The notes under the pieces are model-generated. The model was given only the letters and a program-made list of their open reading frames with translations, was not told the origin of the DNA and did no database searches. This document shows, piece after piece, positions 1,359 to 62,781 of a DNA stretch of 64,000 nt (positions are counted from its first letter, which is position 1; the number at the start of each line of letters is the position of its first letter). Source of the stretch: an uncultured bacterium (GTDB lineage: Bacteria > Patescibacteriota > Minisyncoccia > Moranbacterales > UBA2206). The DNA lies in contig CAIKZD010000014.1 of assembly GCA_903831805.1 (NCBI GenBank), positions 2,078 through 66,077 of the forward strand, given 5' to 3'. Position numbers and translations under genes: made by a program.

Positions 1359-2354
1359 TTATTTTCTACTAATATATTCCGCCATTTCCACTAATCTATT
1401 CGAGTATCCCCATTCGTTATCATACCAAGCAACCACTTTCACCAGATTGCCATTAGCCATTGTGAGCGGCAAGTCCACAATCGAACTGCGCGGATCCATC
1501 TTATAATCCATTGAGACCAGTTCGGCGTCCGTGGCGCCTAAAATATTTTTGAGTTCATTCATAGCGGCTTCACGAAAAGCACTGTTTATCTCGGAAACTG
1601 TCGCTTCTTTTTCCAATGTACAAACAAAGTCGGTGATAGAAACGACCGGAGTTGGCACTCGCAAAGAAATGCCATCCAGTTGGCCTGCCAGATGAGTGAT
1701 CACTTTACCAACAGTCTTAGCGGCTCCTGTCGTCGTAGGGATGATATTCAAAGCGGCCGCACGCGCCCGACGCAAATCACTATGCGGCAGATCCTGCAGC
1801 CGCTGATCATTCGTGTAAGAATGCGTCGTAGTCATAAAACCCTTCTCTACTCCGAACTTTTCATCCAGTACCTTGATGACTGGCGCCAAACAGTTGGTAG
1901 TGCAAGAACCGTTAGAAATGATTGTTTCATTTTTATATTCATTTTCATTCACGCCCAAAAGATAGACTGGGGTGTCATCCTTGGCCGGCGCCGACATAAC
2001 AACTTTTTTCGCACCGGCATCAATATGTTTTTGCGCTTTTTCCTTATCATTGAAAACTCCGCTACATTCCAAAACGACATCCACTGCCAATTCGCCCCAT
2101 GGCAAATTCGCTGGATCTTTTTCCATAAAATATTTTATCCGTGTGCCATCCACAATCAGCTCTGAGTTTTCTTCATCAACAGAAATTTCTTTCTCATATT
2201 TCCCGTAAGAGGAATCATATTGCAAAAGATGGGCGGCGGTCTTGATGTCCGTCAAATCATTGATGGCCACCACTTCAATATCCTCTTTGCCAAATGCAAT
2301 TTTGAAACTCAGTCGGCCGATTCGGCCAAAACCATTGATTGCAATTTTCGTCAT
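1359..2354 (-). CDS. gap: glyceraldehyde-3-phosphate dehydrogenase
   Basis: MTKIAINGFGRIGR N-terminus, SCTTNC catalytic-Cys motif and WYDNEWGYS C-terminus. Start taken at the internal Met (2354) rather than the ORF-track upstream start. Confidence 0.92.
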   Translation of the reverse strand: MTKIAINGFGRIGRLSFKIAFGKEDIEVVAINDLTDIKTAAHLLQYDSSYGKYEKEISVDEENSELIVDGTRIKYFMEKDPANLPWGELAVDVVLECSGVFNDKEKAQKHIDAGAKKVVMSAPAKDDTPVYLLGVNENEYKNETIISNGSCTTNCLAPVIKVLDEKFGVEKGFMTTTHSYTNDQRLQDLPHSDLRRARAAALNIIPTTTGAAKTVGKVITHLAGQLDGISLRVPTPVVSITDFVCTLEKEATVSEINSAFREAAMNELKNILGATDAELVSMDYKMDPRSSIVDLPLTMANGNLVKVVAWYDNEWGYSNRLVEMAEYISRK

Positions 2355-2388
2355 AGTATTTTTTACATTAAGTATTTTACTGTCCTTA

Positions 2389-2661
2389 TTATACTTCAAC
2401 TCCGGTGATTTTCCAATGATTACCCGCCACTTTTTTAATCTCAAATATAGTCTTTTCAAAAGGCGTGTTTTTCGCCACCGTCTCTAGCCCGAACCGCAAA
2501 TTCTCCTCGTTCAGGTCTTCCGTATGTTCAGGGTGGCCGTCATGCGCCAAGGAAATCTGCCCGATTTCAACTTGGACTTTTTTAATATTATCAACTTTCT
2601 GCTCAGCAGAAATTGCCTTTAGTTGATCAATAATTTCTTTGGCTAAGATAAAGTCATGCAT
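2389..2661 (-). CDS. HypA-like hydrogenase nickel-insertion protein, N-terminal domain only (lacks C-terminal CxxC...CxxC zinc site)
   Basis: Starts MHDFILAKEIIDQL (MHE-type N-terminus typical of HypA/HybF). No cysteines occur after the start. It is immediately downstream of dfx and 35 nt upstream of gap. Confidence 0.5.
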   Translation of the reverse strand: MHDFILAKEIIDQLKAISAEQKVDNIKKVQVEIGQISLAHDGHPEHTEDLNEENLRFGLETVAKNTPFEKTIFEIKKVAGNHWKITGVEV

Positions 2662-2665
2662 ATTT

Positions 2666-3040
2666 TTAGTTTTTCCACAGCCCGTGCACGTTGCAATACG
2701 CCCGTGCTTCAGCATGCTCAGCTTCCAGACAAAATTCCGCCATCGGTTCATCTCCCGGTTCTAGCTGCTTTCTATACGTGCGGTGCTCAGTGATAAGCTC
2801 GATCCATTCGATATAATGCTCGGCGGTCATCGGATGCGCGACGCTCCCCACGCGCACAATCATGCCAATGTCGGTTTTTTCGATGGTTGGCTGATGCTTT
2901 TCCGTCCCTTCCTCTTCACTCTTTGCTTGCACGAGTTCCATCGGTTGTCCACAACACACCATTTCTCCCGTGCCACTGTGGACCAATTCAGTCATATTCC
3001 CGCACACGTTGCACTTGTACACTTGATTTAATTCTGCCAT
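2666..3040 (-). CDS. dfx: desulfoferrodoxin (superoxide reductase, 2-domain Dfx)
   Basis: Desulforedoxin-like N-terminus CNVCGN...CCGQPM plus neelaredoxin-type HPMTAEHYIEW...CNVHGLW centre II. Confidence 0.85.
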   Translation of the reverse strand: MAELNQVYKCNVCGNMTELVHSGTGEMVCCGQPMELVQAKSEEEGTEKHQPTIEKTDIGMIVRVGSVAHPMTAEHYIEWIELITEHRTYRKQLEPGDEPMAEFCLEAEHAEARAYCNVHGLWKN

Positions 3041-3068: not shown

Positions 3069-4328
3069 TTAATGGACTGCGCAACTGATACACGGATCAT
3101 AAGCTCGGATGAAGGCACGTAATTTTTTCTCGCGCGCTTCGCCCTCGAGACCAAGGATGGTGGGGATATATTCCGCGATGTCGTCTTCTAAATTATTCAA
3201 AAACTGAGCGGTCGGAGTGATGATGTTCACATTCTTGATATAGCCTTTCGCGTCAACATCCACATGATAGTAGAGCGTTCCACGCGGCGCCTCGATCGCG
3301 GCCACTCCCGTGCCTTCCCTCACTTCATAGCTTTTTGTGACCACTTGTTCCAAATCAGCGTGCAACAGTTCCCGCAGTAATTGCGCTGAGCTTTCGACCG
3401 AATGGATAACTTCCACCATTTGAGCCAAAATATTACCAAACGGATTGTAATACGGAAATTTCCAGGCCAAACTTGTCAGATATTTTTGCGCCGCCGGCTT
3501 TAATTTGTCACGGTTGATATTCACCCGGGCAATCGCACCGATCATATAGCTTTCTCCTCCGTGTTCCACTCGCTTGATCACTTCTTGTTGGCGTTGCAGT
3601 TCGTGGAAACTGGCTTCAAAATTTTCCACCGGGATATGAAAACCACGGTTGGAAACAATGTCACCGTCATAAATCCCATACTCGCCTTTTTTTTGCAATG
3701 AAACATATTCCGTTTCACGATAAAATTCCGGGATTTTGATTTTTTTGAAAAATGCTCCCAACTCTTGGGCGACCTGCAAGATTTCCGCCGACTCCATGGC
3801 AATACGCCGCAAAGCATCAGCCTCCGGTGCTTTTTTAAAGCCGCCCACTTCATTAGTCAGCGGATGCACCACTCGTCCCCCGATCACTTTCACAATCGAC
3901 ATGCCATATTCACGGATGCGGATCGCCATTTTGGCTTCGGCCGGATATTCCTGAACCAATTTGATATCATTATCCATATCCAAAAAATCAGCCAGCGACA
4001 AAAAGAAAAGATGCAGAGCATGCGAATGAATGATCTGCCCATATTCCATGACCGCGCGCAATTTTTCCGTCTCCGGTGTGACAGTGACCCTCATGGCATT
4101 TTCCAAAGCCTTAATCGAAGTCAGACTGTGCACCACCGGACAGATGCCACAGATCCGTTGCGCCACCACCGGCATGTCTTTATAATGCCGCCCGATGAGC
4201 ACACCTTCAATAAGGCGAATGCCCTCTTGCACTTCCAACTTGGCCGATTTAACGTTCCCCTGCAAAACACTGGCCATAAAGCCGGCGTGTCCTTCCATTT
4301 TCGCAATGTGGTTTATTTTGAGTAACAT
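3069..4328 (-). CDS. [NiFe]-hydrogenase large subunit (group 3-like, cytoplasmic)
   Basis: N-terminal RICGICPVVH (RxCGxCxxxH) and C-terminal DPCISCAVH motif. The protein ends exactly at the His with no C-terminal extension. Length 419 aa. Confidence 0.9.
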   Translation of the reverse strand: MLLKINHIAKMEGHAGFMASVLQGNVKSAKLEVQEGIRLIEGVLIGRHYKDMPVVAQRICGICPVVHSLTSIKALENAMRVTVTPETEKLRAVMEYGQIIHSHALHLFFLSLADFLDMDNDIKLVQEYPAEAKMAIRIREYGMSIVKVIGGRVVHPLTNEVGGFKKAPEADALRRIAMESAEILQVAQELGAFFKKIKIPEFYRETEYVSLQKKGEYGIYDGDIVSNRGFHIPVENFEASFHELQRQQEVIKRVEHGGESYMIGAIARVNINRDKLKPAAQKYLTSLAWKFPYYNPFGNILAQMVEVIHSVESSAQLLRELLHADLEQVVTKSYEVREGTGVAAIEAPRGTLYYHVDVDAKGYIKNVNIITPTAQFLNNLEDDIAEYIPTILGLEGEAREKKLRAFIRAYDPCISCAVH

Positions 4329-4346: not shown

Positions 4347-5300
4347 TTAATTTAATTTACAAATATTTTTAAGGGCAGCGGTATCTTCCGCTGTCAACGT
4401 GGGAGTGTTAATATCTTGATCACCGATCAGATAATACATGATTGATTTGGAATTTTCCACGTGCGGCAGACCGAGATAGTGGCCCAATTCATGGATCAAA
4501 GTCAGGCGCAAATCTGACGCCGCCTTGAATTGATAAACATTGATTTCTTTTCCGTCAAAAACGCCTTTTTCAAATTCCTGCATGTCGCCGTATTGGCTTT
4601 TATAAGTCGCCACGGTGCTATTATAGTTCGCGACCATTTGATTCTCTTTTTTGGCCAAACTGTTAGTTTGATTGACCAGTGCATTGATGGCAGCGCCTTC
4701 TTGCTGGATTTTATTAAATCGATCATTTAGATCGTTCTTGGTTTTTTTCAATTTACTATATTCATCTGCCGGCGCACCACCTTGGCCATTCCAATAGCTG
4801 ACTTCGGCGTTATATTTGTCCAGCTTATTTTTGTAATCCACCACGTCGTTATTATAATTATCAATCTTTTTCTTATAATCTACGCTCAGCGAATTATATT
4901 GTTGCGTCAACACCTTATCGGTCGCTTCCAGACTTTGCAAATTTTGCTCTAACTCCGCCGCCGCCACAGATTGTTCTTGCCGATTGTCAAAAACTAAATT
5001 TATCTTGAACGCCGCCGCTGGATCATATTGCAGTAGCACCTTCCCTTCACCCTTATTCCAAACCTCCGCCGCCTGGGTAGCTAGTTTTTCTAAATCATCC
5101 TGGGAAATGCCAAATTTTGGATCGATATTGCCAATGGCATATGTCAATGGCTTAGAACACGGTTGATCCAGGCCCAATTCCTTTTGCACCGCCATTTTCA
5201 CCTCTCGCACCACTTCCTGTGTTTGAGTTTTGTTGGTCAGCACTATCCCCCAAAAAGAAAAGAGGGCGATGAGCAAGAGATATTTAAAAAAATTCTTCAT
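4347..5300 (-). CDS. membrane-anchored zinc metalloprotease (metzincin/matrixin-like HExxHxxGxxH) with central coiled-coil
   Basis: N-terminal TM helix LLLIALFSFWGIVL, HELGHYLGLPH zinc motif followed by a Met-turn-like SIMYY, and a long Q/N/K-rich coiled-coil in the middle. It lies between the hydrogenase small and large subunit genes with 18-29 nt gaps. Confidence 0.7.
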   Translation of the reverse strand: MKNFFKYLLLIALFSFWGIVLTNKTQTQEVVREVKMAVQKELGLDQPCSKPLTYAIGNIDPKFGISQDDLEKLATQAAEVWNKGEGKVLLQYDPAAAFKINLVFDNRQEQSVAAAELEQNLQSLEATDKVLTQQYNSLSVDYKKKIDNYNNDVVDYKNKLDKYNAEVSYWNGQGGAPADEYSKLKKTKNDLNDRFNKIQQEGAAINALVNQTNSLAKKENQMVANYNSTVATYKSQYGDMQEFEKGVFDGKEINVYQFKAASDLRLTLIHELGHYLGLPHVENSKSIMYYLIGDQDINTPTLTAEDTAALKNICKLN

Positions 5301-5329: not shown

Positions 5330-6172
5330 CTATGCCATCTTCTCCTCAATGTCATCTCGCATACCATAGATTTCCGTGGTGTTTTCAAACTCTTCATCAC
5401 TCATCATATTTTTCAGCGTGGCGCGCATGGCTTTCACATTCCCCGTCGGCCGCAGGCCGCGACAACCTTGACACATCATGCGGCTGGTTGGACACACCGC
5501 ATTGCACCCACCCAAAATCATCGGTCCAAAACACGGTTTTTTGTCGAGCAAAAGACAGCGATTGCCCGCTTTCTTGCATTCCACACACACTGGCGTATCG
5601 GAAATGGTCGGAATGCGCCCCGCAATCAGTTCCGGAATGTACTTCAAAAACTCTTCGGCGTTGATGGGACAACCCGGAAAAGTGAAGTCCACTTTCACAA
5701 AATTATCAATCTCTTTGACTTCTTCGTTCTGGATGCCTTGGATATATTTATAGACATGTTTTATAGTGTTGGTCTTTTCGTGATAGTTCCTGATTTCCGG
5801 AATGCCACCCATAGCCGCGCAGTTTCCCAAAGCGCATAAAATTTTAGACCTTTTTCGAGCCTCCTGTAATGTTTTCACATTGGCTTCTGTCATTGGGTTG
5901 CCTTCTACAAAAACTATATCCAGCTCACCGCCGGCATCCTCTTCATCTTCAATCAAACGAAAATCCACAATTTCCACCAGCTCAGTCAATTGCAGGAATC
6001 TCTCGCCGAGATCAAGTAGTGCAAATTGACAACCCTCGCACGAAGTCAGGCTAACAATGGCAATTTTAGGTTTCTTCTTGTCCCGCGATTCTGCCGTAGG
6101 CAGAATTTTGCGGGAATTTTTATTTTTCATTTTAAAAAAGTTAAGGTTATTTTCACTTCTATATTTTAACAT
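5330..6172 (-). CDS. [NiFe]-hydrogenase small subunit (group 3-type, NuoB-like fold)
   Basis: IAIVSLTSCEGCQ proximal-cluster motif, further Cys clusters (GCPINAEEF, CVECKKAGNRC, GGCNAVCPTSRMMCQGC). The start could alternatively be the ATG at 6130. Confidence 0.85.
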   Translation of the reverse strand: MLKYRSENNLNFFKMKNKNSRKILPTAESRDKKKPKIAIVSLTSCEGCQFALLDLGERFLQLTELVEIVDFRLIEDEEDAGGELDIVFVEGNPMTEANVKTLQEARKRSKILCALGNCAAMGGIPEIRNYHEKTNTIKHVYKYIQGIQNEEVKEIDNFVKVDFTFPGCPINAEEFLKYIPELIAGRIPTISDTPVCVECKKAGNRCLLLDKKPCFGPMILGGCNAVCPTSRMMCQGCRGLRPTGNVKAMRATLKNMMSDEEFENTTEIYGMRDDIEEKMA

Positions 6173-6261
6173 ATTTCAGATGATTTATGAAATATTTTTC
6201 GCCTAAATAGTAAAGTAAGCATTTTTTTGCTAAGATTAAACTATTACAACCTACTAGGCAT

Positions 6262-7560
6262 ATGCGGACCCTTAACTTTCCTAACCATAATAAAAGAACT
6301 ATTTTAGCCCTCGGCGCCGAATCCGCCGGCAATTTTTCCATATATAAAAATGGAAAAATATATTTTTCCGCAGACTTCGGAGACTTATTAGAAGAGAATA
6401 ATTTTATTGCTTTCAAAAAAGCCGTTTTGGTTTTTTTAAAAAAAGAGAAAATTACCCCGGATATTATCCTCACTGATTTGCATCCCCTCATGAAAACAAC
6501 TTTGTGGGGTGAAGAATTGGCCCAAAAATACTCCGCCAAAGGCGGATCCGCCTCTGGCGGAAAGGCTGAACATATCCAGGTCCAACACCACCACGCCCAT
6601 ATTTTTTCTGCCATCGGAGATTATCTTTCCCCCTCCTCTGTACCCAGGGGAGGGCTGGGGAGGGGTTCTGGAAATTTACCCAACACTTTATTTACCATCG
6701 CCATGGACGGCACGGGCTACGGCGAAGATGAAAAAATTTGGGGCGGAGAAATTTTCAAAGTCACCTCAAAACCCTCTCCCCTTGTACTCAGGGGGAGATG
6801 TCCGGTACTCCGGACAGAGGGGGTTCGTGTTGAACGCATCGGCCACCTAGAAAACCAAACAATGATTGGCGGAGAACTGGCTATCCGCGAGCCAGCTCGC
6901 ATACTGATTGCCATTTTATCCAAATTCCTATCCAAAAAAGAAGTTTTTAATTTTGTCAAAAAATATTATTCAAAAAATGAATTTGAATTACTGCACAGTC
7001 AACTTGGGCAAAATTTCAACTGCCTGGAAACATCCAGCACCGGAAGGATTTTAGATGCTATATCTTTACTATTAGGTTTTTGTGGCAATGTTAGAAAGTA
7101 CAAGCACGAACCAATCGACCTTTTGGAAAAAAATTCCACCGAGCCATACATCTTTAAACCAATTATAGAAAATAACATCTTGCAAACTACGCCACTTTTT
7201 GCATATCTAATAAAAAATATCCACCAAAACAAAAAACGCCTCGCCGCCACGGCGCAATTATATATCGCAAAGGGTTTACATGAAATAATTCAATCATATT
7301 GTCATCCTGAGCGGAGTCTGTACTCGGACGCAGTCGAAGGATCTGCCAATGAACACTACCAGCAATGCCACAAAGCAGATTCTTCGACTTCGCTCCGCTC
7401 CGCTCAGAATGACAGCATCTTCTTTTCCGGCGGCCTCGCCAGCAATAAAATAATTTCAGTTTACTTAGAATCCCAAGGCGCCTACGCTTCAAAAATAGTC
7501 CCGCGCGGAGACAATGGGTTAAGCTTTGGACAAATAGTCTATTACTTATTGAAAAAATAA
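6262..7560 (+). CDS. hypF: HypF-like carbamoyltransferase, Kae1/YrdC-type C-terminal domain only (no acylphosphatase or Zn-finger domains); carries 3 in-frame palindromic insertions
   Basis: ILALGAESAGNFSI, IQVQHHHAHI, AMDGTGYGEDEKIWGGE, GGELAIREPARI and a C-terminal GGLASNK...PRGDNGLSFGQ all match the HypF C-terminal domain. Length 432 aa versus about 750 for full HypF. Confidence 0.75.
   Translation: MRTLNFPNHNKRTILALGAESAGNFSIYKNGKIYFSADFGDLLEENNFIAFKKAVLVFLKKEKITPDIILTDLHPLMKTTLWGEELAQKYSAKGGSASGGKAEHIQVQHHHAHIFSAIGDYLSPSSVPRGGLGRGSGNLPNTLFTIAMDGTGYGEDEKIWGGEIFKVTSKPSPLVLRGRCPVLRTEGVRVERIGHLENQTMIGGELAIREPARILIAILSKFLSKKEVFNFVKKYYSKNEFELLHSQLGQNFNCLETSSTGRILDAISLLLGFCGNVRKYKHEPIDLLEKNSTEPYIFKPIIENNILQTTPLFAYLIKNIHQNKKRLAATAQLYIAKGLHEIIQSYCHPERSLYSDAVEGSANEHYQQCHKADSSTSLRSAQNDSIFFSGGLASNKIISVYLESQGAYASKIVPRGDNGLSFGQIVYYLLKK
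6630..6690. repeat. GC-rich palindromic insertion inside hypF reading frame (encodes SPSSVPRGGLGRGSG)
   Basis: cccctcctctgtacccaggggagggctggggagggg forms cccctcc/ggagggg arms. It interrupts the conserved HypF block between AIGDY and TLFTIAMDGTGYG. Confidence 0.6.
6770..6835. repeat. Second palindromic insertion in hypF, related to the 6630 copy, with a nested tgtccggtactccggaca hairpin
   Basis: aaccctctccccttgtactcagggggag...gagggggtt. It shares a ccctcYcc..tgtacYcaggggRag core with the 6630 element and encodes KPSPLVLRGRCPVLRTEGVRV between conserved GGEIFKV and ERIGHL. Confidence 0.6.
7300..7415. repeat. About 116-bp palindromic element (TGTCATCCTGAGCG...CGCTCAGAATGACA termini) inserted in-frame in hypF
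   Basis: Left arm tgtcatcctgagcggagtctgtactcggacgcagtcgaaggatctg, right arm cagattcttcgacttcgctccgctccgctcagaatgacag. It is homologous to the intergenic element at 19270-19409 and encodes CHPERSLYSDAVEGSANEHYQQCHKADSSTSLRSAQNDS. Confidence 0.75.
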
Positions 7561-7727: not shown

Positions 7728-8171
7728 CTACTCATCAGGCTTAACTTTCATCTCGCCGATCCGCAAAATAGCAATGCGTTCGCCTGGCGCCTGACGATCA
7801 TATTCTGGGCCTAATTTTGGCGGATTAAGATTAACCGAGGTTTCATATCCTGAAACCATGCCAATGACAATCTGGATTATCCATAAAATCTGGTCTATGC
7901 CCTCAGCTTCCGCCAAGCAATCAGATAGCATAAAAAGACAACCTCGCTCTTTCTCTGATTTACCTATTCCTACCCACAAACCACGTCCATCTCTAACAGG
8001 AATTATTGATGGCCCGGTTTTTTTCCCGTCAGTACGAGTACCCTGAAAAATCCAGAGTTCATCTCCTGGCTTGCCCTTTCCAAAGATGTAGCTAATTTTT
8101 GAATCTTTTTTATCAATTTTCGTCCCAATTACTATACCAGGACAAGTCAACTCATGCTTCTTATCTCCCAT
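7728..8171 (-). CDS. hypothetical protein in hyp cluster
   Basis: ORF MGDKKHELTCPGIVIGTKIDKK... with no recognisable motif. It has its own terminator and sits between hypE and divergent hypF. Confidence 0.45.
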   Translation of the reverse strand: MGDKKHELTCPGIVIGTKIDKKDSKISYIFGKGKPGDELWIFQGTRTDGKKTGPSIIPVRDGRGLWVGIGKSEKERGCLFMLSDCLAEAEGIDQILWIIQIVIGMVSGYETSVNLNPPKLGPEYDRQAPGERIAILRIGEMKVKPDE

Positions 8172-8286
8172 AACATCCCTCCTTATCACTTATATATTTT
8201 ATGGTTTTGGAAATAAGCTCCCGTAAGAACACGACGAATTGTAAAACAGCTGCAACTATATATACTATATTAAAATAACATTTTTG

Positions 8287-9306
8287 TCAACAAATCCTCG
8301 GCACCAACTTCCCCCGTGGCACTTCTATGCGGCGCAGTCCGCCGAGTTCAGTTTTAACAAAAACCCCATTGCCGCGAAAAGTCTGGCCGATAACCCTCGC
8401 TTCAGGATTAAATTTTTGCAAAATGCTTAAAACTTTTTTGACATTTTTCGGCGCCACCGAAGCGATAAACCGCCCTTCAGACGCCAAAGAAAAAATATCA
8501 AGTCCCAAAAGTTCTGTCACAGCCACTGTTTCTTTCTTATACGGCAAAGTTTTTTCGTCCAACACCACTTTAACGCACGACTTCTCCGCCATCTCATTCA
8601 AGTTAGCGGACAGTCCGCCGCGCGTCGGGTCTTTACAAGCGTTGAGATATTTTCCCACTTTTTCAATTTCGCGGTGAAGCGGCGTGCAATCGCTTTGAAT
8701 TTTAGTTTTGTAATTAAAGCGCTTAGCCAAAAGTGTCACTGTGTGTTCACCCAAATCGCCGGAAGAAATGACATAGTCACCCGTTTGCATACCGCCATTC
8801 GAAATGATATTTTGCGCGAGACCCACGCCACTGGTAGTGATTTCAATCTTATCTATTTTACCTTTCTCCGTCACTTTCGTGTCGCCTGTCACAATCGGCA
8901 CGCCAGTTTCGCGGGAAACTTGGCCAATGGACGCCATGATTTTTTTCAAATCATTCATCGGAAATCCCTCTTCCAAAACAATACTAAGGCCAATTCCAAT
9001 CGGCCGTGCGCCCATCATCGCCAGATCATTGATCGTCCCACACATCGCAATCTTCCCAATATTCCCGCCCGGAAAGAAAATCGGATCCACAATAAAGGCA
9101 TCGGTCGTGAAGACCAAATTGCCTGCATCCGTAGAGACGCGATTAATCGCGTCTCTACCCAAGCTAAACACCGCCCCATCATCCCCCGTATTTTTCCACT
9201 TCGATTTCACGGTGAAATTCTTCCTGATTTCTGCAATGATTTCGGCCGATTTCTTCCCTCCACCACCGTGCTCGAGAGTCACCTTGTCAGATTGTTTTGT
9301 TGCCAT
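8287..9306 (-). CDS. hypE: hydrogenase maturation carbamoyl dehydratase HypE
   Basis: PurM-like fold signatures and the characteristic C-terminal PRIC. Confidence 0.88.
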   Translation of the reverse strand: MATKQSDKVTLEHGGGGKKSAEIIAEIRKNFTVKSKWKNTGDDGAVFSLGRDAINRVSTDAGNLVFTTDAFIVDPIFFPGGNIGKIAMCGTINDLAMMGARPIGIGLSIVLEEGFPMNDLKKIMASIGQVSRETGVPIVTGDTKVTEKGKIDKIEITTSGVGLAQNIISNGGMQTGDYVISSGDLGEHTVTLLAKRFNYKTKIQSDCTPLHREIEKVGKYLNACKDPTRGGLSANLNEMAEKSCVKVVLDEKTLPYKKETVAVTELLGLDIFSLASEGRFIASVAPKNVKKVLSILQKFNPEARVIGQTFRGNGVFVKTELGGLRRIEVPRGKLVPRIC

Positions 9307-9386: not shown

Positions 9387-10427
9387 TCATTTTAAATATC
9401 TATACCCCACATTACACGCCCCTTCCACCGAAACCATGCACGGCCCGACGGGATTGTCTGGGGTGCAGATTTTGCCAAAGAGCGGACATCTTTTGGATTC
9501 CATCAGACCACGGATGACTTCCCCGCAGCGACAACCGTCTGGATCTTTGGAATGCGAGAAATCTACTTTATCTAAAATATCTTTGTATTTAATTTTAGCA
9601 TCAAACTGCTTATATTTATTTCTGATTTTTAAACCCGATTTCGGAATGATACCAAATCCCCGCCAATCTCCGTCACCAACTTCGAAAACTTCGGCAATTA
9701 TTTTTCGGATTTTTTCATTCCCCGCATCTTTTACCACGCGAGAATATTGGTTGAGCACCTGCGTATCTTTATTTTTTATTTGATTGAGTAGTAATAATAT
9801 TCCCGCCAAAACATCTTCCATTTCAAAGCCAGTGATGACTTGGGGAATTTTCAATTTCGCGTATGGCGCCGTGCCGAGTACCACACTGACGTGTCCCGGG
9901 TCGATAAAACCATCAATCTTAATTTCCCCCATCGCCAGCAGTGCTTCCATGGCCGGCAAAAATATTTTATGCGCTGAATAGACTGTTAGGCCCTGCTGAA
10001 TCCCCCAAGCTGTCATCGGTGTAGTGGTTTCAAAACCCAACCCGAAAAAAACTAACTCCGGAATTTTCTTAGCAAGCTCAACCGCGTCCGTCACTGAATA
10101 GACGTCATATACTTTGGCGCCCTGTTCACGTGCGCCGTCCAAACTGCCGAAATATCCCGGGACGCGAAGCGCATCACCATAAGTCACTACCGGCACGCTA
10201 GCCAACGCCAAATTCACAATCGCATCAATGTCACGCTGCGCCGTCACACACACAGGACAGCCCGGCCCGGTAATGAGTTTTATATTTTTGGGCAAAATCT
10301 CCCGAATCCCAAACCGACTAATCACCTGCGTATGCGTCCCACACACTTCCATCAAATTCACAGGCCGGCCGATTTCTGCCGCCAGTTTTTCTATTTTTCG
10401 AATAAAATTATCCGTCATATCGGCCAA
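9387..10427 (-). CDS. hypD: hydrogenase maturation factor HypD
   Basis: MEVCGTHT, GPGCPVCV and CPLFGKICTPDNPVGPCMVSVEGAC motifs. Confidence 0.88.
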   Translation of the reverse strand: MADMTDNFIRKIEKLAAEIGRPVNLMEVCGTHTQVISRFGIREILPKNIKLITGPGCPVCVTAQRDIDAIVNLALASVPVVTYGDALRVPGYFGSLDGAREQGAKVYDVYSVTDAVELAKKIPELVFFGLGFETTTPMTAWGIQQGLTVYSAHKIFLPAMEALLAMGEIKIDGFIDPGHVSVVLGTAPYAKLKIPQVITGFEMEDVLAGILLLLNQIKNKDTQVLNQYSRVVKDAGNEKIRKIIAEVFEVGDGDWRGFGIIPKSGLKIRNKYKQFDAKIKYKDILDKVDFSHSKDPDGCRCGEVIRGLMESKRCPLFGKICTPDNPVGPCMVSVEGACNVGYRYLK

Positions 10428-10435
10428 GCGGACAG

Positions 10436-10469
10436 TCTGCTGTAATCAGCGGACTGTCCGCGCTCTTTT
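10436..10469 (-). promoter_or_regulatory. Strong hairpin in hypC-hypD intergenic spacer
   Basis: gcggacagtc tgctg taat cagcg gactgtccgc has a 10-bp perfect outer stem and no U-tract. Possible processing or attenuation site. Confidence 0.35.
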
Positions 10470-10486: not shown

Positions 10487-10687
10487 TTATTTCAAATACT
10501 CTTCAATATCCTTAACCACATCATCTTCAATCTTTTCAATCGCAAACCCGGCGTGCACAATCACGAACTCGCCTATTTTGGGCTCGCTCAGCAAAGTTAT
10601 ATTGATTTCTTTTTGCACACCCGAAAAATCAACTGTCGCCAGATGTTCATTAATTTTGATAATTTTTCCTGGAATAGCTAAACACAT
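10487..10687 (-). CDS. hypC: hydrogenase maturation factor HypC
   Basis: MCLAIPGKIIKI N-terminus (Cys2). The ORF-track upstream extension overlaps the 165-bp repeat, so start is taken at MCLAIP. Confidence 0.85.
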   Translation of the reverse strand: MCLAIPGKIIKINEHLATVDFSGVQKEINITLLSEPKIGEFVIVHAGFAIEKIEDDVVKDIEEYLK

Positions 10688-10852: not shown

Positions 10853-12298
10853 TTAAATTTCCGCTGATTGCCCTCCTCCGCGTTCGCATCCCCTCGGACA
10901 CACCATCACTTCCAGAAAGTCATAATGTTTTTCTCTTTTTAATTCAGCTGATAAGGCGTTCTTGATTTCGAGCACGCCGTTGGCCGCACCGATGGAAAAA
11001 TCACCCTTGATTTTTTTGGCCGTCATGGCGGAGAGGTTGCCATATCCATACGTCGTAGCATACTCGGCGTCCGTCTCATCCAAAAACTTATCCGCCGCGG
11101 AGCCTTTGAAACGGATGTTTTCTGTTTTCTTCTCCCGCGCGATGCGGCCCAGCTCCCGCACCGTGACGATATGATCAATCGCATTACTCTTGAGTTTTTT
11201 TCTGGCGGCGCAAGATGAGATAAGTATCACTCGGATGTTTTTCGGATCGATTTTTTCTCGCTTGGCATATTCCCATTTGACCGCTTCCGCCATCAATTCT
11301 TCCGGCCGTTTTACGTCGATAATATTTTTTATTAATTCCGGAAAATATTTTTGGATATACAGCGCCGCGCTCGGGCAAAAACTGGAGATAAATTTTCGCT
11401 GGCGCACCGGCGTTTTTTTTCTGGCGTGATGCGGATGGATCTCTTCCGCCACAGCTTCGACATATTTCTGGAATCCCCAACTCAGATCGAAAACTTTTTC
11501 GCATCCCAGTGCCCGCAGATTCCCGGCCAAATTTTCCATGTTCTTCACCTCAAGAAGTTCCTGCATCGCGCTTTTCAGGACCACCGGGTCCACGATGGCC
11601 ACTGAAAGAATGTTGGTGTCATCTAAGTCGGTGATGACTTTTTGGATATCGCCCTGGTCGGCCAGCGCGCCGGTCGGGCAATGCGTCACGCAGGCTCCGC
11701 AAAAAATACAATCCAGTGGCTGGTTGTATGGCGTCCCAACCACCACATCTCCTGAGCGATGATTGAAACCATACGAACTGACGGGACAAATGTTGATGCA
11801 ACGCCGACATTCTACGCAATATTGCGAATCACGCTCAATGACCGGATTTTCTCTGTCCACCACCACGCGAGACCAGTTATCCAGCAAAAGTTCATTTTCC
11901 TCGCCACTAGTCATCTCACCTTTTCTTGGCACAAAATGAAAATTCTCTATCTTATATTCTTCCGCCAAAGTTTGCAATTCACAGCGACGGTTTTTTTTGC
12001 ACTGAAAACACTTGCCGGCATGATCCGCCCAAAGCAGTTCCAAATTGATGGCCCGCGCTTTCTGGATGTTTTCATTTTCCGTTTCCACTTTCATCCCATC
12101 AACGGCTTTGGTCGCACAAGAAGTCACCAACCGGCCAGATTTATCAATTTCTACCAAACACAACCGACAAACTGCTTCGCGTTTAAGTTTTCCATGCGAA
12201 CAAAGAGTCGGAATGCGGATCCCCTCGCGCCGACAGACATCCAAGACAGTGTCTTTTTCTTTGGCGCTATATTTTTTTCCATTTATTTTTATTTGCAT
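10853..12298 (-). CDS. [FeFe]-hydrogenase-like catalytic subunit (HydA-like, M3 architecture) with atypical H-cluster motifs
   Basis: NuoG-like N-terminus (2Fe-2S CRLCLVEI; CVECRRCINICP; CIFCGACVTHCP). H-domain motifs are L1 SSFCPSA (canonical TSCCPGW), L2 SSCAARKK (MPCxxKKxE), L3 EVMVCPRGCERGGGQS (ExMACxxGCxxGGGQ). Start taken at MQIKINGKKY (12298), overlapping the nuoF-like stop. Confidence 0.75.
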   Translation of the reverse strand: MQIKINGKKYSAKEKDTVLDVCRREGIRIPTLCSHGKLKREAVCRLCLVEIDKSGRLVTSCATKAVDGMKVETENENIQKARAINLELLWADHAGKCFQCKKNRRCELQTLAEEYKIENFHFVPRKGEMTSGEENELLLDNWSRVVVDRENPVIERDSQYCVECRRCINICPVSSYGFNHRSGDVVVGTPYNQPLDCIFCGACVTHCPTGALADQGDIQKVITDLDDTNILSVAIVDPVVLKSAMQELLEVKNMENLAGNLRALGCEKVFDLSWGFQKYVEAVAEEIHPHHARKKTPVRQRKFISSFCPSAALYIQKYFPELIKNIIDVKRPEELMAEAVKWEYAKREKIDPKNIRVILISSCAARKKLKSNAIDHIVTVRELGRIAREKKTENIRFKGSAADKFLDETDAEYATTYGYGNLSAMTAKKIKGDFSIGAANGVLEIKNALSAELKREKHYDFLEVMVCPRGCERGGGQSAEI

Positions 12299-13536
12299 AA
12301 TATTTTTAATTTTTCCACGGCATCCCCCATCGCCGTCGCCGCAAATCTGCCCAGCGGACAAAAAGTTGTATTTTCCAAAGTCCATAAAATGTCTTTGAGT
12401 GCTTCCCGATCCCGCTCGGAAATTTCTCCGTCCTGCCATCTGCTCACAATTTCATGCAGCCGAAAAGTGCCTTCGCGGCACGGCACGCATTTGCCACACG
12501 ACTCGCGACGGAAAAATTCCGTCCAAGACAAGATTAAATCATAGATATTGGCACTTTTGTCGACAACCAAAATAGATCCTGAGCCGAGGGGAATCGGACA
12601 GTCACGAGAAAATGTGAGCGGCGTATCCAATTCCTTCTCGGTGACAAGATGTCCGGACGCTCCCCCAATTTGCGCAAACCAAAATTCTTTACCCAATGTC
12701 ACGCCGCCGCCGATTTCATCAATCAACTCACGGATGGTTAGGCCAGTCGGCGCTTCCACTACGCCCGGTTTTTTCACACTTCCACCCAAGATGTACAATT
12801 TCATCCCCGGCGAACAGGTGGCCCCGAGCTTGGCATATTTTTTCCCAGAGTTTAAGATTATCCACGGAATATTGGCGATTGTCTCGGCGTTGTTCACGCA
12901 TGTCGGTTTGCCGAAAAGCCCGGTTTCCGTCGGATAGGGCGGTCTAAGTCGCGGTTCGCCGCGACGCCCTTCGATAGAATTAAGGAGGGCCGTTTCTTCA
13001 CCGCAGATATACGCCCCGGCTCCAGAAAAAATTTCAATATCCAAATCATAACTCGAACCCATGATCCCCGGTCCCCAAAAATTTTTCTTCCGCGCTGCTT
13101 CCAATGCCGTTTCTAGAATTTCTTTTTGCTTATGATAATTCCCATTGAGATAGAGATAGGCTTTATGCGCCCCGACGGCTAGTGCGGCAATAATGACCCC
13201 TTCCAAAAGCAAATGCGGATCATTATCCACAATCATGCGGTCCTTATATGTGCCCGGCTCCGATTCTTCCAAATTGCAAATGAAATATTTCTCATGGCTT
13301 GCATTCTCAGCCACTATTTTTAATTTTTCCCCGGTCAAAAATCCCGCCCCACCCCGCCCGGACAACTTGGATTTCACAATTTCAGCAATGGCTGTTTGTG
13401 GCTTCATCTCTGAGACAAACTTTTTGAGCGCGCCGTAACCGCCTACATTTATATAATCAGCAATCTTGAGAGGATTAATATGCCCCCAGTTTTTGGTCAG
13501 TATTTTTTCTGTCTTAGCCATATTTATTAAATCCAA
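12289..13536 (-). CDS. NADH-binding NuoF/HoxF/HydB-like flavoprotein subunit
   Basis: GRGGAGFLTG FMN/NAD site, C-terminal ESCGKCVPCREG 4Fe-4S motif. Length 415 aa. Confidence 0.85.
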   Translation of the reverse strand: MDLINMAKTEKILTKNWGHINPLKIADYINVGGYGALKKFVSEMKPQTAIAEIVKSKLSGRGGAGFLTGEKLKIVAENASHEKYFICNLEESEPGTYKDRMIVDNDPHLLLEGVIIAALAVGAHKAYLYLNGNYHKQKEILETALEAARKKNFWGPGIMGSSYDLDIEIFSGAGAYICGEETALLNSIEGRRGEPRLRPPYPTETGLFGKPTCVNNAETIANIPWIILNSGKKYAKLGATCSPGMKLYILGGSVKKPGVVEAPTGLTIRELIDEIGGGVTLGKEFWFAQIGGASGHLVTEKELDTPLTFSRDCPIPLGSGSILVVDKSANIYDLILSWTEFFRRESCGKCVPCREGTFRLHEIVSRWQDGEISERDREALKDILWTLENTTFCPLGRFAATAMGDAVEKLKILCK

Positions 13537-13539
13537 ATT

Positions 13540-13986
13540 TTACAGATATTCTTCCAACATCTCGTACACACTGCTCACCGTCACTCGCTCATAAACCTTA
13601 CCATTCACCATCACCACCGGGCCCTCGCCACATCTGCCCACACAACTCATCATTTCTAATTTAAATTTCGGATGATTCACGTCCCCCAACTTTATGTGCA
13701 AAATATTTTCTATTTCAGCAATTATTTTTTTGGCATCGCTCAGCGCGCAATGCGTCGAGAAACAAACCCTCACTACGAACGGCGGTTGTTTTTCGGTGTT
13801 TATATTATCATAAAAGCTGGCTGTTTCATAAATCTGCGTTTTGGTGACAGAAAAATAGTCTGCGATTTTTCCAGTCTTTTCTTCATCAACGTAACCAAAA
13901 ACAAGACTAATTTGTCGGATGGCCGGCAGAATATTCTCCGCCCTGGGCGAGAATTCTAAAAGTATTTTTTCTACAGTCAAAGACAT
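13540..13986 (-). CDS. NuoE/HoxE/HydC-like 2Fe-2S thioredoxin-fold subunit
   Basis: VCFSTHCALSDAKK...CVGRCGEGPVVMVNG Cys motif pattern of the NuoE family. Confidence 0.8.
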   Translation of the reverse strand: MSLTVEKILLEFSPRAENILPAIRQISLVFGYVDEEKTGKIADYFSVTKTQIYETASFYDNINTEKQPPFVVRVCFSTHCALSDAKKIIAEIENILHIKLGDVNHPKFKLEMMSCVGRCGEGPVVMVNGKVYERVTVSSVYEMLEEYL

Positions 13987-14048: not shown

Positions 14049-14909
14049 TTACGCTTTATCCGCGCTGCCAAATAAACCTATCTTTTTCACCACGCTTTTT
14101 TTGACTGCTTCGCGCGCTTGGCCCAAAATCTTTCTCACATCAAAACCCGGGTCATCATCCGAACGAAAAATAGTGCTGAGCGTATTCACGAAGGCCAGCC
14201 GAGTATTGGTATCAATATTAAAACAGCTTACCCCGTGCTTAACCGCCTCAACAGCCTTATCTTCCCAATCCGAAGCACCATGCATCACAATCGGCACCGT
14301 TACCAGACTTCTGATTTTGTCCAATCTTTCCCAATCCGGTGTTTCCCGTTCTTTGAAAAAGTCATGCGCATTGCCAATGGCCACCGCCAAGGCATCGATG
14401 CCGGTCTCCTCTACGAAATATTTCGCCTGTTCCGGATCGGTCATATACTTATCCCAATCCACTTCGCCCATCTTATTTTCACTCAAATACGGCACATTGC
14501 CCAATTCGCCCTGCACGTCCACGCCCAAATCATGACAAAAATCCACCACCTTCTTGGTCACTTCCAAATTATCCTCAAATTTTTTGCGACTGCCGTCATA
14601 CATCACGGATGTAAAACCGTTGTTCACAGTTCGTTGTACAATCTCAAAACTGTGCCCATGGTCCAGATGAATGCCGATGGGAATTTCCGGCGCATAAAAC
14701 TCCGCATAGTTTTTTATCAAATGAAAAATCCCTCGCCCGCCGGCATATTCCAAAGTATTCTCAGACACTTGGATGATAATGGGCGAACGCGCCTCTTTCG
14801 CCGCGTCCACAATGGCCTGTGTGATTTCCATGTTAACCGTATTAAAGGCGCCCACCGCATAACCGCCTTCTTTGGCTTTTTCTAAAATTTCTTTGACTGA
14901 TGTGATCAT
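14049..14909 (-). CDS. fba: class II fructose-1,6-bisphosphate aldolase
   Basis: GAFNTVNME, IHLDHGHS and a 286-aa length match class II FBA. Confidence 0.85.
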   Translation of the reverse strand: MITSVKEILEKAKEGGYAVGAFNTVNMEITQAIVDAAKEARSPIIIQVSENTLEYAGGRGIFHLIKNYAEFYAPEIPIGIHLDHGHSFEIVQRTVNNGFTSVMYDGSRKKFEDNLEVTKKVVDFCHDLGVDVQGELGNVPYLSENKMGEVDWDKYMTDPEQAKYFVEETGIDALAVAIGNAHDFFKERETPDWERLDKIRSLVTVPIVMHGASDWEDKAVEAVKHGVSCFNIDTNTRLAFVNTLSTIFRSDDDPGFDVRKILGQAREAVKKSVVKKIGLFGSADKA

Positions 14910-14913
14910 ATTT

Positions 14914-15675
14914 TTATTGGTTAATTATTTCCGCAATTTTAATAAATTCATAGGGCGCAAGGCTTTCCCGCCCAACCAGTGCTCCATCCATCCCAGAATC
15001 CACACAAATATTTTTAGCGTTCTTAGAATCGACTGATCCCCCATAAATTATTTTTACTTTATCAGCCGTTTTGGCGGAATATTTTTCCACCAAAAATCTT
15101 TTTATCAAAATCCGCGCGCTCATCACACCATCGGTTGTCGGCAGATGATCGGGGTTATTAGCGCTGATGGCCCAAACCGGTTCATAGCAGATCACGACGT
15201 TTTCGATCCGCGCCGCCCCCACTTCCTTCAAACAATTTTTGAGCTGACTCATAATCGTCGCTGAGCCGTTTCCCTGTTTCTCTTTCTCGCCGACGCAAAG
15301 AAGCGGCCGCAGACCGGTCTTCAATGCCGCCATAACCTTGAGACCGATTTCCTCATCATTTTCACCGAAGTATCGTCTCCTTTCGCTGTGGCCCAAGATC
15401 ACCCACTCCGCCCCGAAATTCCGAACCATATCAGGCGAAATTTCCCCGGTGTATGATCCGTTCCGCTCCCAAAACATATTCTGCACCCCCAGGAAAACTT
15501 TTTTGCTTTTCAATTTTTTGAACGCTTCCAAATGTATGGCCGGCGGACAAAGTACAATGCTAGTTCTGCTCAACTTTTTTCCAGCCAGTTCTTTTTTGAA
15601 CAGCTTGAAATATTGTTCGCGTTCCAACGGACTTAAGATATTCATCTTCAAATTTCCCACCACTAATTTTTCCAT
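14914..15675 (-). CDS. tpiA: triosephosphate isomerase
   Basis: VVGNLKMN, VILGHSERR and ICYEPVWAI(S) motifs. Confidence 0.9.
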   Translation of the reverse strand: MEKLVVGNLKMNILSPLEREQYFKLFKKELAGKKLSRTSIVLCPPAIHLEAFKKLKSKKVFLGVQNMFWERNGSYTGEISPDMVRNFGAEWVILGHSERRRYFGENDEEIGLKVMAALKTGLRPLLCVGEKEKQGNGSATIMSQLKNCLKEVGAARIENVVICYEPVWAISANNPDHLPTTDGVMSARILIKRFLVEKYSAKTADKVKIIYGGSVDSKNAKNICVDSGMDGALVGRESLAPYEFIKIAEIINQ

Positions 15676-61794: not shown

Positions 61795-62781
61795 TCAGGA
61801 TGTTCTGGTTTTTCTCACCGGCAAGGCAACTGTGGCCGGAACTTGTGCGGCGCTGGGCGCAGAAACAGTCACGGGTGAAATCTCTCCTACGGGCGCAGCA
61901 GCCGAAGAATTTAAATCGGCCGTTGGAACATTGCTATCGACCACTGTTGCACTCTTTGCCGCTTGCTGGATAAAATAGAACGGCACCAGAAAAACTAGCG
62001 CCGCAAACCCGACCGCATAAATAGTATTGCGTAATTTCGCGTACCAACCATCATCCGGTATCATAGAGAATGCTTCCATTTCAATCTGGGAAGCCTGCAC
62101 ACCAATACTCTGCAAATTTTCCGTCATCGCGCGGATAAAGTTCGGCGGGCCACAGATGAAAAAAGTTTTTCCATAAACGTGGCCGATAAAATTTTGGATA
62201 ACCTCAGGGTCCAAGCGCCGGTTCAACACTCCGGCCGTTTCATAGGGCAACTTTTCATCCGTTATATTGAAAAGGGTGCGAATATTTTTGTTTTCTTTCT
62301 CCAATTCCAGAAGTTCTTCTAAAAATAACGCCGAGCGAAGCGTACGATTACTGTATAGTAGCGTAAGATGATTGGACAGGCGCTGCGCCGTGGCGTAACG
62401 CAAAGCGCTGATAAAAGGCGTGATGCCTACGCCGCCAGCCAAAAAAACCAAGTCTGTATGCTTCTCTTTTTTAAAAGTGAACTTACCATAAGGCCCCTCC
62501 ACAAAAATTTCTGTTCCAACTGACAACTGCGCCAGCCCGGTTGTGAAAGCGCCGCCCAATCTGATGCCTAGGCGGATAGAGCCGTTTTCCGTAGGCGAAC
62601 TGGCGATGGAAAAAGTGTGTCTTTGCGTAAGGTTACCATTTGCGTCTTTGTAGCAAATCATTGCGTATTGTCCCGGAACGAAATCAAAAACTGGGATTCC
62701 GCGCACATCCCCCAGTTCTAAAATTATCGTATCTTCCTCATTTTTCGTGATTTTTTTGATATAATACCTGTATTCGTGCAT
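61795..62781 (-). CDS. FNR-like FAD/NAD(P)H-binding oxidoreductase domain protein with C-terminal TM helix
   Basis: RHTFSIAS (RxYS FAD), GGVGITP (NAD), CGPP; a C-terminal TM helix; and a P/A/S/V-rich tail. Confidence 0.65.
   Translation of the reverse strand: MHEYRYYIKKITKNEEDTIILELGDVRGIPVFDFVPGQYAMICYKDANGNLTQRHTFSIASSPTENGSIRLGIRLGGAFTTGLAQLSVGTEIFVEGPYGKFTFKKEKHTDLVFLAGGVGITPFISALRYATAQRLSNHLTLLYSNRTLRSALFLEELLELEKENKNIRTLFNITDEKLPYETAGVLNRRLDPEVIQNFIGHVYGKTFFICGPPNFIRAMTENLQSIGVQASQIEMEAFSMIPDDGWYAKLRNTIYAVGFAALVFLVPFYFIQQAAKSATVVDSNVPTADLNSSAAAPVGEISPVTVSAPSAAQVPATVALPVRKTRTS

Follow-up and report, generated by a model that had tools for sequence, protein, structure and literature searches.

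How does a gene that resembles the catalytic subunit of an [FeFe] hydrogenase come to lie beside genes for the maturation of [NiFe] hydrogenases, and what can its product do there when the proton-relay cysteine is gone? Both questions are raised by a 64,000-nucleotide (nt) stretch of DNA from an uncultured bacterium of the Moranbacterales (contig CAIKZD010000014.1; the whole stretch is called the window below). The gene, here named hydA*, lies in it between nuoE- and nuoF-like genes on one side and hyp genes together with the [NiFe] structural genes hyhS and hyhL on the other. We consider it likely, from the sequence evidence given below, that HydA* is an [FeFe] hydrogenase-derived Fe-S conduit, similar in role to HoxU or NuoG, in a soluble, non-bifurcating, NADH-linked [NiFe] hydrogenase of the composition NuoE/NuoF/HydA*/HyhS/HyhL. 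We infer that HydA* itself is no longer the catalytic subunit of a hydrogenase and that its di-iron site is absent.

The gene and the two parts of its product are located as follows.

hydA*, 10853..12298, minus strand: 481-amino-acid (aa) HydA-derived Fe-S subunit consisting of an F-domain and an H-domain relic (Pfam, PDB matches, AlphaFold2 model, Foldseek)
F-domain, aa 1-214, 11657..12298, minus strand: predicted from ligand conservation to bind one [2Fe-2S], one His-ligated [4Fe-4S] and two further [4Fe-4S] clusters
H-domain relic, aa 215-481, 10856..11656, minus strand: four [4Fe-4S]H cysteines kept, [2Fe]H pocket rebuilt, end directly after motif L3 (alignments)

The protein starts with MQIKINGKKY; a longer in-frame start at 12439 was rejected, since it would overlap the upstream gene and is not used by gene callers. 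Its Pfam content comprises Fer2_4, NADH-G_4Fe-4S_3, two Fer4 and Fe_hyd_lg_C (residues 248-475, E = 1.4e-34), and the nearest relatives of solved structure are HydA1 of T. kivui HydABC (8a6t_A, E = 6.6e-63), HydA of T. maritima and A. woodii, and CpI. By these domains and matches the product is an M3-type HydA homologue. The 16 ligands of the F-clusters are present (C33, C44, C47, C61, H93, C97, C100, C106, C161, C164, C167, C171, C197, C200, C203 and C207). An AlphaFold2 (AF2) model built on a 96-sequence alignment reached a mean predicted local distance difference test score (pLDDT) of 87.8 and a predicted template modelling score (pTM) of 0.86, with most of the H-domain relic above pLDDT 90. 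In Foldseek the model gave a TM-score of 0.84 to HydA1 (8a6t_A) and 0.83-0.84 over HydA1 and CpI. HydA* therefore shares the H-domain fold of group A HydA by Pfam Fe_hyd_lg_C and Foldseek, and in the model this fold is retained; the same matches led us to reject a plain HoxU or NuoG subunit without an H-domain. The top family match, NCBIfam NF040763 (NADH-dependent [FeFe] hydrogenase group A6, E = 3e-83), covers only residues 2-408 and scores 280 bits, far below the curated cutoff of 765 bits, and the HoxU model matches the F-domain (E = 1.2e-36) with 126 bits compared with a cutoff of 333.

Residues of the H-domain were numbered after a CpI sequence of 574 aa, in which 19 of 19 literature-numbered residues fall correctly, and the assignments for HydA* agree across three independent alignments. 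The three cluster-binding motifs read as follows.

L1 motif SSFCPSA (aa 305-311), 11366..11386, minus strand: F307 corresponds to CpI C299, the proton-relay Cys, and C308 to the cluster ligand C300
L2 motif ISSCAARKK, 11195..11221, minus strand: S361 corresponds to M353, C363 to C355 and R366 to K358
L3 motif EVMVCPRGCERGGGQ, 10868..10912, minus strand: C467 corresponds to C499 and C471 to C503; the stop codon follows four residues on

All four cysteines of the [4Fe-4S]H subcluster (C300, C355, C499 and C503 in CpI) are kept as C308, C363, C467 and C471. The sequence-only reading from which this work started had named these four cysteines, the relay Cys replaced by Phe, the L2 sequence CAARKK with the conserved Glu missing, and a 481-aa HydA-like reading frame with an M3-type F-cluster N-terminus. 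We confirm each of these observations and add that the gene, for which no strand had been given, is on the minus strand, and that the missing Glu (CpI E361) was lost by a deletion near L2 that also took eight neighbouring residues. That reading had also named, as a finding that would overturn it, a Cys-Cys pair at L1 displaced by a gap; such a pair was rejected, as a single Cys lies near L1 in all three alignments. The changes extend far beyond the relay Cys. A230 is replaced by Asp, S232 by Val, E279 by Val, Q325 by Glu, M353 by Ser and F417 by Thr; in addition to the 9 aa at L2, about 31 aa are deleted after the GGxxE region, and the C-terminal tail of HydA of about 65 aa (Pfam Fe_hyd_SSU) is absent. 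HydA* thus departs from catalytic group A enzymes in the L1 motif TSCCPxW and the relay residues (taken here as C299, E279, S319 and E282), in the second-sphere residues of the di-iron site (A230, S232, Q325, M353, K358, F417 and M497, of which only K358, as K/R, and M497 are in part retained in the family) and in the C-terminal tail.

This state is not a chance feature of one genome, because the same state recurs in 90 homologues. A search of 5.8 billion proteins returned 717 matches at E <= 1e-10, and the named close matches all belong to Patescibacteria/Candidate Phyla Radiation (CPR) bacteria (Parcubacteria, Moranbacteria, Pacebacteria). Family statistics were taken from the 90 homologues of 440-510 aa. 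The full set of F-cluster ligands is conserved in 89-90 of them. CpI position 299 is occupied by H (44), F (21), Y (16) or N (7) and never by Cys; A230D is found in 90/90 and M353S in 87/90, and E361 is deleted in 90/90. Further replacements in the family are E279 by M/L/I, Q325 by D/E, S232 by A/V and F417 by I/M/L, and L3 is followed by only 3-14 aa, compared with 63-66 aa in catalytic HydAs of CPR bacteria. As judged by these alignments, the loss is family-wide and affects most of the [2Fe]H pocket. Genuine full-length HydAs with TSCCPSW and a complete pocket also occur in CPR bacteria (583-586 aa in the protein search), as does a short group of 330-360 aa in which L1 and L3 are lost and K, E or R stands in place of C355. 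When the relic alone was used in a profile-free search of 1.84 billion cluster representatives, only four matches at E <= 1e-30 were obtained, so that the relic appears to be a well-separated lineage.

Could HydA* nevertheless still bind an H-cluster and act, like the HydS proteins of groups C and D, as a sensory or a very slow or bias-shifted [FeFe] hydrogenase, which would make the locus a double-catalyst hybrid? The retained fold would be compatible with this, and part of the H-cluster environment is conserved in the family: the four cysteines, including the bridging Cys503, in 87-89 of the 90 homologues, K358 as K/R in 89/90, M497 in 66/90, P231 in 81/90 and P324 in 87/90. Characterised sensory HydS enzymes, among them TmHydS and TamHydS of the putative sensory groups C and D, reportedly also lack the relay Cys and several second-sphere and other pocket residues. 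Hybrid complexes whose H-cluster is active are also known from archaea (PMC11216029). Strictly speaking, a judgement from sequence therefore leaves some room for a modified di-iron site in HydA*. Against an H-cluster speak the family-wide Asp at position 230 and the bulky H/F/Y at position 299, which point into the space of the di-iron site, the other pocket replacements, the deletions and the lost tail; at position 299, moreover, H, F, Y, N, S, A or C is found, and this variability argues against a specific new role there. Group C and D proteins differ from HydA* in that they keep the CN-binding residues and the C-terminal part and have, in addition, a further C-terminal cluster, a PAS domain or both. 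HydA* lacks all of them: Pfam finds no PAS or other signalling domain and no additional C-terminal [4Fe-4S] cluster, and the chain ends four residues past L3. Its neighbours are nuoEF, hyp and glycolysis genes and not regulatory genes. Short relatives in the same gene context do without any H-cluster Cys.

Alternatively, the H-domain relic might be a functionless, decaying remnant of a gene that is perhaps on its way to a pseudogene, with the cysteines as a historical residue. The relic does evolve faster than the F-domain (44% compared with 68% pairwise identity within the family), and one sub-lineage has deleted most of it. However, the reading frame is intact in 21/21 species-level HydA* loci (46-78% identity to the window protein), the four cysteines are conserved as stated, numerous positions of the relic vary little or not at all (G265, D237, S361, K367, R381, E463 and G470), and AF2 models the relic with confidence. 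We therefore regard mere decay as hardly credible; the relic fold is kept and under selection.

The genes that surround hydA* in the window and that enter the proposed complex, its maturation and its metabolic context are the following.

nuoE-like, 13540..13986, minus strand: thioredoxin-like [2Fe-2S] subunit
nuoF-like, 12289..13536, minus strand: NADH/flavin mononucleotide (FMN) subunit of 415 aa (nuoF_fam E = 3.9e-130), its end overlapping the hydA* start by 10 nt
hyhS, 5330..6172, minus strand: group-3b-type [NiFe] small subunit with three [4Fe-4S] sites (12 Cys; ShyD E = 1.3e-46)
hyhL, 3069..4328, minus strand: group-3b-type [NiFe] large subunit (RICGICPVVH ... DPCISCAVH-stop)
hypC, 10487..10687, minus strand: [NiFe] maturation chaperone (MCLAIPGK...), directly downstream of hydA*
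hypD, 9387..10427, minus strand: E = 5.2e-125
hypE, 8287..9306, minus strand: AIRS and AIRS_C domains
hypF, 6262..7560, plus strand (opposite to the others): C-terminal Kae1-like part only
hypA-like, 2389..2661, minus strand: without zinc-finger Cys
triosephosphate isomerase (TIM), 14914-15675, minus strand: upstream, in conserved synteny
class II fructose-bisphosphate aldolase (FBA), 14049-14909, minus strand: directly upstream of nuoE
glyceraldehyde-3-phosphate dehydrogenase (GAPDH), 1359-2459, minus strand: closing the cluster

The NuoF-like subunit contains only the Pfam domains Complex1_51K, SLBB and NADH_4Fe-4S. Bifurcating HydB/BfuB subunits are marked by the additional clusters B2-B5, located in an N-terminal [2Fe-2S] and C-terminal ferredoxin domains (PMC9304861, PMC7311640). 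As these clusters are missing here, the enzyme should be non-bifurcating, and the earlier description of the locus as a bifurcating HydABC-type layout does not hold. Its inventory of NuoE- and NuoF-like neighbours and hyp genes, with no hydEFG in the window, was correct, and the [NiFe] structural genes hyhS and hyhL had escaped it.

HyhL and HyhS are group-3b-like by sequence. The best PDB match of HyhL is the alpha subunit of P. furiosus sulfhydrogenase I (E = 1.2e-63; 7t2r_D 2.2e-49, 5xf9_D 1.5e-39) and that of HyhS the delta subunit of the same enzyme (E = 2.4e-38); all [NiFe] ligands of HyhL and the 12 Fe-S cysteines of HyhS align to sulfhydrogenase I. The ShyA (E = 1.1e-70, HyhL) and ShyD matches both remain below the equivalog cutoffs. 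Across related loci RICGICPVVH is found in 21/21 and DPCISCAVH followed by a stop codon in 20/20 HyhL sequences, and HyhS usually has 12 Cys. Since HyhL ends exactly at DPCISCAVH, no maturation endopeptidase should be needed. The diaphorase subunits of group 3b enzymes, beta (HyhB) and gamma (HyhG), were found neither in the window nor in the Pfam-annotated loci L002, L004 and L005. A FAD/NAD-binding protein at 61795-62781 was rejected as a gamma subunit, being 50 kb away, adjoining a ferric-reductase membrane protein and lacking a [2Fe-2S] domain. Presumably, NuoE, NuoF and HydA* supply the missing function of HyhB and HyhG.

A comparison of loci bears on such a partnership. Scanning the GTDB species representatives gave 80 loci, each of them labelled as CPR-type; the label 'uncultured Bdellovibrionales', carried by some of them, looks like mislabelling. 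The association test was restricted to the 64 species-level loci in which the gene is complete and is followed by 3 kb of sequence or more. Typing HydA by its pocket signature gave three forms.

Catalytic HydA, 584-602 aa: pocket signature ASECCMCKMCC; hyp/hyh genes downstream in 0/25
HydA*, 455-497 aa: Asp at A230, no Cys at 299, four Cys kept; hyp/hyh genes downstream in 16/16
Short form, 338-354 aa: no H-cluster Cys; hyp/hyh genes downstream in 20/23

Degenerate forms are thus accompanied by hyp/hyh genes in 36/39 loci compared with 0/25 for catalytic forms (Fisher's exact test, p = 8e-15). The gene order RuvX-GT2-GalT-exporter-TIM-FBA-NuoE-NuoF-HydA is common to the degenerate loci and to the catalytic loci of the nearer subgroup, and in the latter unrelated genes follow downstream of HydA. 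A contiguous cluster, NuoE-NuoF-HydA*-HypC-x-HyhS-x-HyhL-HypA-GAPDH, is present in L002 (Moranbacteria GCA_013334765.1) and L004, and in L002, L004 and L011 a gap of 5-15 nt separates hydA* from hypC. Neighbour-joining analysis of the F-domain, with CpI as the root, placed HydA* and the short forms in one clade of 46 sequences that is sister to the catalytic HydAs of CPR bacteria, with the short forms nested in HydA*; by this tree the degenerate forms have a single origin. No HydE, HydF or HydG was found among the genes of the window, and a motif screen of all open reading frames (ORFs) of 82 related loci (L001-L086 minus four duplicates), with flanks of 10 kb to either side, likewise detected none; a radical-SAM gene beside the catalytic-type locus L006 was rejected as a maturase, as it is RlmN and not HydE or HydG.

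With these data the idea of a persisting H-cluster becomes very unlikely: the degenerate state coincides almost without exception with [NiFe] and hyp genes at the locus, and no hydEFG genes were found in the window or in the flanks of the related loci. The sequence-only reading had offered a regulatory H2 sensor, a slow or bias-shifted hydrogenase, and a hydrogenase-derived redox module as possible roles. Broad pocket loss, the missing sensory domain, the [NiFe] linkage and the Cys-less subclade argue against its first two options, which were its headline; the third is the one that the evidence favours.

If HydA* is a conduit, its partner does not have to be HyhSL. NuoE/NuoF/HydA* could be a stand-alone NADH oxidoreductase that reduces ferredoxin, desulfoferrodoxin or another acceptor, with HyhSL as an independent second enzyme. 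In the window hyhSL is a separate transcription unit; one related locus (L063) has no [NiFe] genes, L029 and L049 contain orphan short forms, and a non-CPR relic (P0159, see below) serves a flavoprotein and not a hydrogenase. On the other side stand the association of hyp/hyh genes with degenerate loci, the direct abutment of hypC on hydA*, the lack of any other candidate diaphorase for HyhSL in the window or the Pfam-annotated loci, and the phylogenetic coincidence of H-cluster decay with the gain of [NiFe] genes. On balance we think two separate enzymes unlikely, and we infer that the NuoE-like, NuoF-like, HydA*, HyhS and HyhL subunits associate physically in one complex.

Some points weigh against the proposed NADH-linked [NiFe] hydrogenase with HydA* as conduit, in addition to the conserved residues of the H-cluster environment mentioned above. 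In the window hyhS-hyhL are about 4.7 kb from hydA*, beyond hypCDE and the opposite-strand hypF, and not on the same transcript, unlike in L002 and L004, where they directly follow the hydA* module. The F-domain tree is a distance tree with a single outgroup, the CpI sequence (numbering checked). Maturase linkage is uninformative either way, because the catalytic-type loci likewise lack linked HydE/F/G. Finally, short forms without the relic cluster keep the same gene context.

In the proposed complex, the FMN of the NuoF-like subunit would, by homology, oxidise NADH, and electrons would pass from the [4Fe-4S] cluster of NuoF to the F-domain chain of HydA*, for which 16/16 ligands are conserved. 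From there they would reach the distal cluster of the three-cluster HyhS, and the [NiFe] site of HyhL, with its intact ligand motifs, would reduce protons to H2 or catalyse the reverse reaction. Two models can be considered for the junction between HydA* and HyhS. In the first (a), the [4Fe-4S]H relic contacts the distal HyhS cluster; truncation and internal deletions may have exposed the relic. In the second (b), HyhS docks at the His-ligated cluster of the F-domain, as HoxY and the HydS of A. mobile do (PMC8880783); the relic would then have a structural role away from the electron path, comparable to that of cluster A5 of NiFe-HydA. As short forms without the relic cluster occur in the same context, this cluster cannot be essential for electron delivery to HyhS, which weakens model (a). 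Conservation of the F-domain ligands does not discriminate between the models, because these ligands are conserved in every HydA type.

Physiologically, the enzyme would probably re-oxidise glycolytic NADH with the release of H2, as the cluster is embedded between the TIM/FBA genes and GAPDH. According to published measurements, H2 formation from NADH by non-bifurcating enzymes of this kind requires an H2 pressure of less than about 60 Pa (PMC7311640). At such a requirement for very low H2 pressure the cell would need an H2-consuming partner, which would fit the partner-dependent lifestyle of CPR bacteria.

Regarding the evolution of the locus, the simplest account is that an ancestor possessed an NADH-dependent, non-bifurcating, trimeric [FeFe] hydrogenase beside glycolysis genes and that one lineage gained a 3b-type [NiFe] dimer and hyp genes downstream at the same site. 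The pocket would then have decayed stepwise, from the catalytic protein of about 585 aa to HydA* of about 470 aa with the [4Fe-4S] cluster only and on to a short, HoxU-sized stub of about 345 aa without H-cluster Cys. NuoE, NuoF and the F-domain would have been kept throughout as diaphorase and wire. A more daring version, which we consider rather unlikely, holds that a CPR lineage (Moranbacteria/Parcubacteria) swapped the catalytic centre in situ, with the transition series preserved, and in its strongest form that the [4Fe-4S]H relic is the direct junction to the distal HyhS cluster, a previously unseen interface, or that HydA* binds a modified metal site, giving two H2-reactive centres.

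No known family fits the module as a whole. As a precedent for a relic with only a [4Fe-4S] cluster, eukaryotic Nar1/NARFL has the H-domain fold and binds a [4Fe-4S] cluster with the four H-cluster cysteines without a di-iron subcluster; it differs by its role in cytosolic Fe-S assembly and by having neither an M3 F-domain nor NuoEF or [NiFe] partners. NiFe-HydABCSL of A. mobile (PDB 7T2R; PMC8880783) likewise combines NuoE-, NuoF- and HydA-like subunits with a [NiFe] small and large subunit, and its HydA contains no H-cluster and a plain [4Fe-4S] cluster where the H-cluster would sit (PMC8880783). An H-cluster-less HydA adjacent to the genes for [NiFe] small and large subunits is also found here, contiguously in L002 and L004. 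However, A. mobile HydA (7t2r_A) matches only residues 3-213 of HydA* (E = 6.8e-25), beyond which similarity ends, whereas HydA* keeps a true H-domain; A. mobile HydB is bifurcating and carries the B2-B5 clusters, in contrast to the minimal NuoF-like subunit here; and A. mobile HydS (179 aa) has one cluster compared with three in HyhS. Group 3d HoxEFUYH (PDB 5XF9) resembles our proposal in transferring electrons from NADH to protons without bifurcation by means of a NuoE/NuoF-type diaphorase, the HoxU conduit and a [NiFe] dimer. The module is not a 3d enzyme, since HoxU (about 240 aa) has no H-domain, HoxY has a single cluster and HyhL/HyhS are of the 3b type. Full-length, the closest solved relatives of HyhL and HyhS are those of the group 3b sulfhydrogenase I of P. 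furiosus (PDB 9E1J, 9E15, 9NEZ); of the group 3b set HyhBGSL, the module has large and small subunits of this type and lacks beta and gamma. The 'group A6' enzymes Hyd1ABC of S. wolfei and HydAB of S. aciditrophicus (PMC7311640) share the minimal NuoF-type beta subunit, and true A6-type members are encoded at this syntenic locus in sister CPR genomes. Compared with them, HydA* is without the relay Cys, the C-terminal tail and the greater part of the pocket residues, and catalysis has presumably passed to the [NiFe] dimer. The archaeal hybrids of group F/G [FeFe] and group 3f/3g [NiFe] hydrogenases (PMC11216029) also unite both hydrogenase types and NuoE/F/G-like subunits in one cluster. There, HydA is fused to HyhS, the H-cluster site is complete and the enzyme is active after artificial maturation; the module described here is bacterial and unfused, with a degenerate pocket.

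Hydrogenases of CPR bacteria related to group 3b often lack detectable beta and gamma subunits, which was left unexplained and their function called uncertain (Jaffe et al., PMC7304191), and CPR 3b enzymes with HyhB and HyhG have also been described (Valentin-Alvarado et al., PMC10811913). The literature that we searched contains no description of the present CPR arrangement or of NuoE/NuoF/HydA* as a [NiFe] partner. For this lineage, an NADH module inherited from an [FeFe] hydrogenase offers an answer to the missing beta and gamma subunits. The names '[FeFe] hydrogenase' or 'Fe-only hydrogenase large subunit' given to homologues probably overcount [FeFe] hydrogenases in Patescibacteria and may point to the wrong electron donor for the [NiFe] enzyme. 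The locus would be a natural stepwise record of the exchange of one hydrogenase class for the other on a conserved NADH-dehydrogenase chassis, complementing the archaeal hybrid hydrogenases and NiFe-HydABCSL of A. mobile. A non-bifurcating NADH-to-H2 enzyme amid glycolysis genes would further imply that these CPR cells rely on a partner that consumes hydrogen.

Distant truncated HydAs without the relay Cys exist outside CPR bacteria as well (P0159, P0220, P0226 and P0240). P0159 (495 aa, SSVCPS, four Cys kept) is encoded by the last gene of an operon consisting of a FAD_binding_2 flavoprotein (660 aa), Fer4, NuoE, NuoF (409 aa) and the HydA-like protein (L089 3885-9488, L090 838-4459), in a non-CPR organism with SLH-domain proteins and without hydrogenase genes nearby. 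Because this relic sits in a flavoprotein/Fer4/NuoE/NuoF operon, relics appear to serve as conduits elsewhere too, and H-cluster-less HydA relics may form a wider class of conduits of NADH modules.

The remaining genes of the cluster in the window are listed below.

Desulfoferrodoxin (superoxide reductase, Dfx), 2666-3040, minus strand: between hyhL and the hypA-like gene
Peptidase_M10-like (matrixin-like) gene, 4347-5300, minus strand: between hyhS and hyhL
ORF of 153 aa, 7728-8189, minus strand: after hypE, no match in Pfam or NCBIfam

The position of the Dfx gene, with hyhL and hypA as its neighbours, is conserved in many loci. L063 keeps the order NuoE-NuoF-short HydA-Dfx-GAPDH (Dfx at 11260-11631) in the absence of [NiFe] genes, and Dfx may thus be another possible electron acceptor of the NADH module. 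The [NiFe] maturation set appears reduced: the HypA-like protein is below the family cutoff and has no zinc-finger Cys, HypF is represented by its C-terminal part only, and no HypB was seen in the window. The Peptidase_M10-like protein has an N-terminal signal or membrane anchor and 53% identity to the L004 copy; at least 20 related CPR loci have its gene in this slot, so that an apparently exported metalloprotease is conserved inside a cytoplasmic hydrogenase cluster. A PDDEXK_3 gene takes this slot in L002. As additional subunits we rejected the 153-aa ORF, which has no counterpart beyond the near-identical duplicate locus of the window itself (L001), and a 151-aa ORF (6159-6614, minus strand), which overlaps hypF on the opposite strand, matches no family and is probably spurious. 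A protein of 233-239 aa encoded in the hypC-hyhS gap of L002 (11618-12337) and L004 (11633-12334) was likewise rejected, as it has no homologue in the window; it evolves fast, has no Pfam match and is confined to loci whose cluster is without hypDEF (L002, L004, L035 and L061).

A scan of the window for promoters and terminators gave no clear operon boundaries. A GC-rich hairpin with a 15-bp stem lies in the hypC-hypD spacer (10428-10461) and another with a 14-bp stem at 6531-6562, within the hypF ORF and upstream of hyhS. Elsewhere the window carries housekeeping genes (ribosomal proteins, EF-Tu, EF-G, SecY, RecA, FtsK). The search of cluster representatives also yielded P0121, a protein of 4122 aa in which about seven complete and near-identical HydA H-domains (TSCCASW) stand in tandem ahead of flavodoxin-like and FNR-like domains; the protein looks eukaryotic and may be an artefact of the gene model or the assembly.

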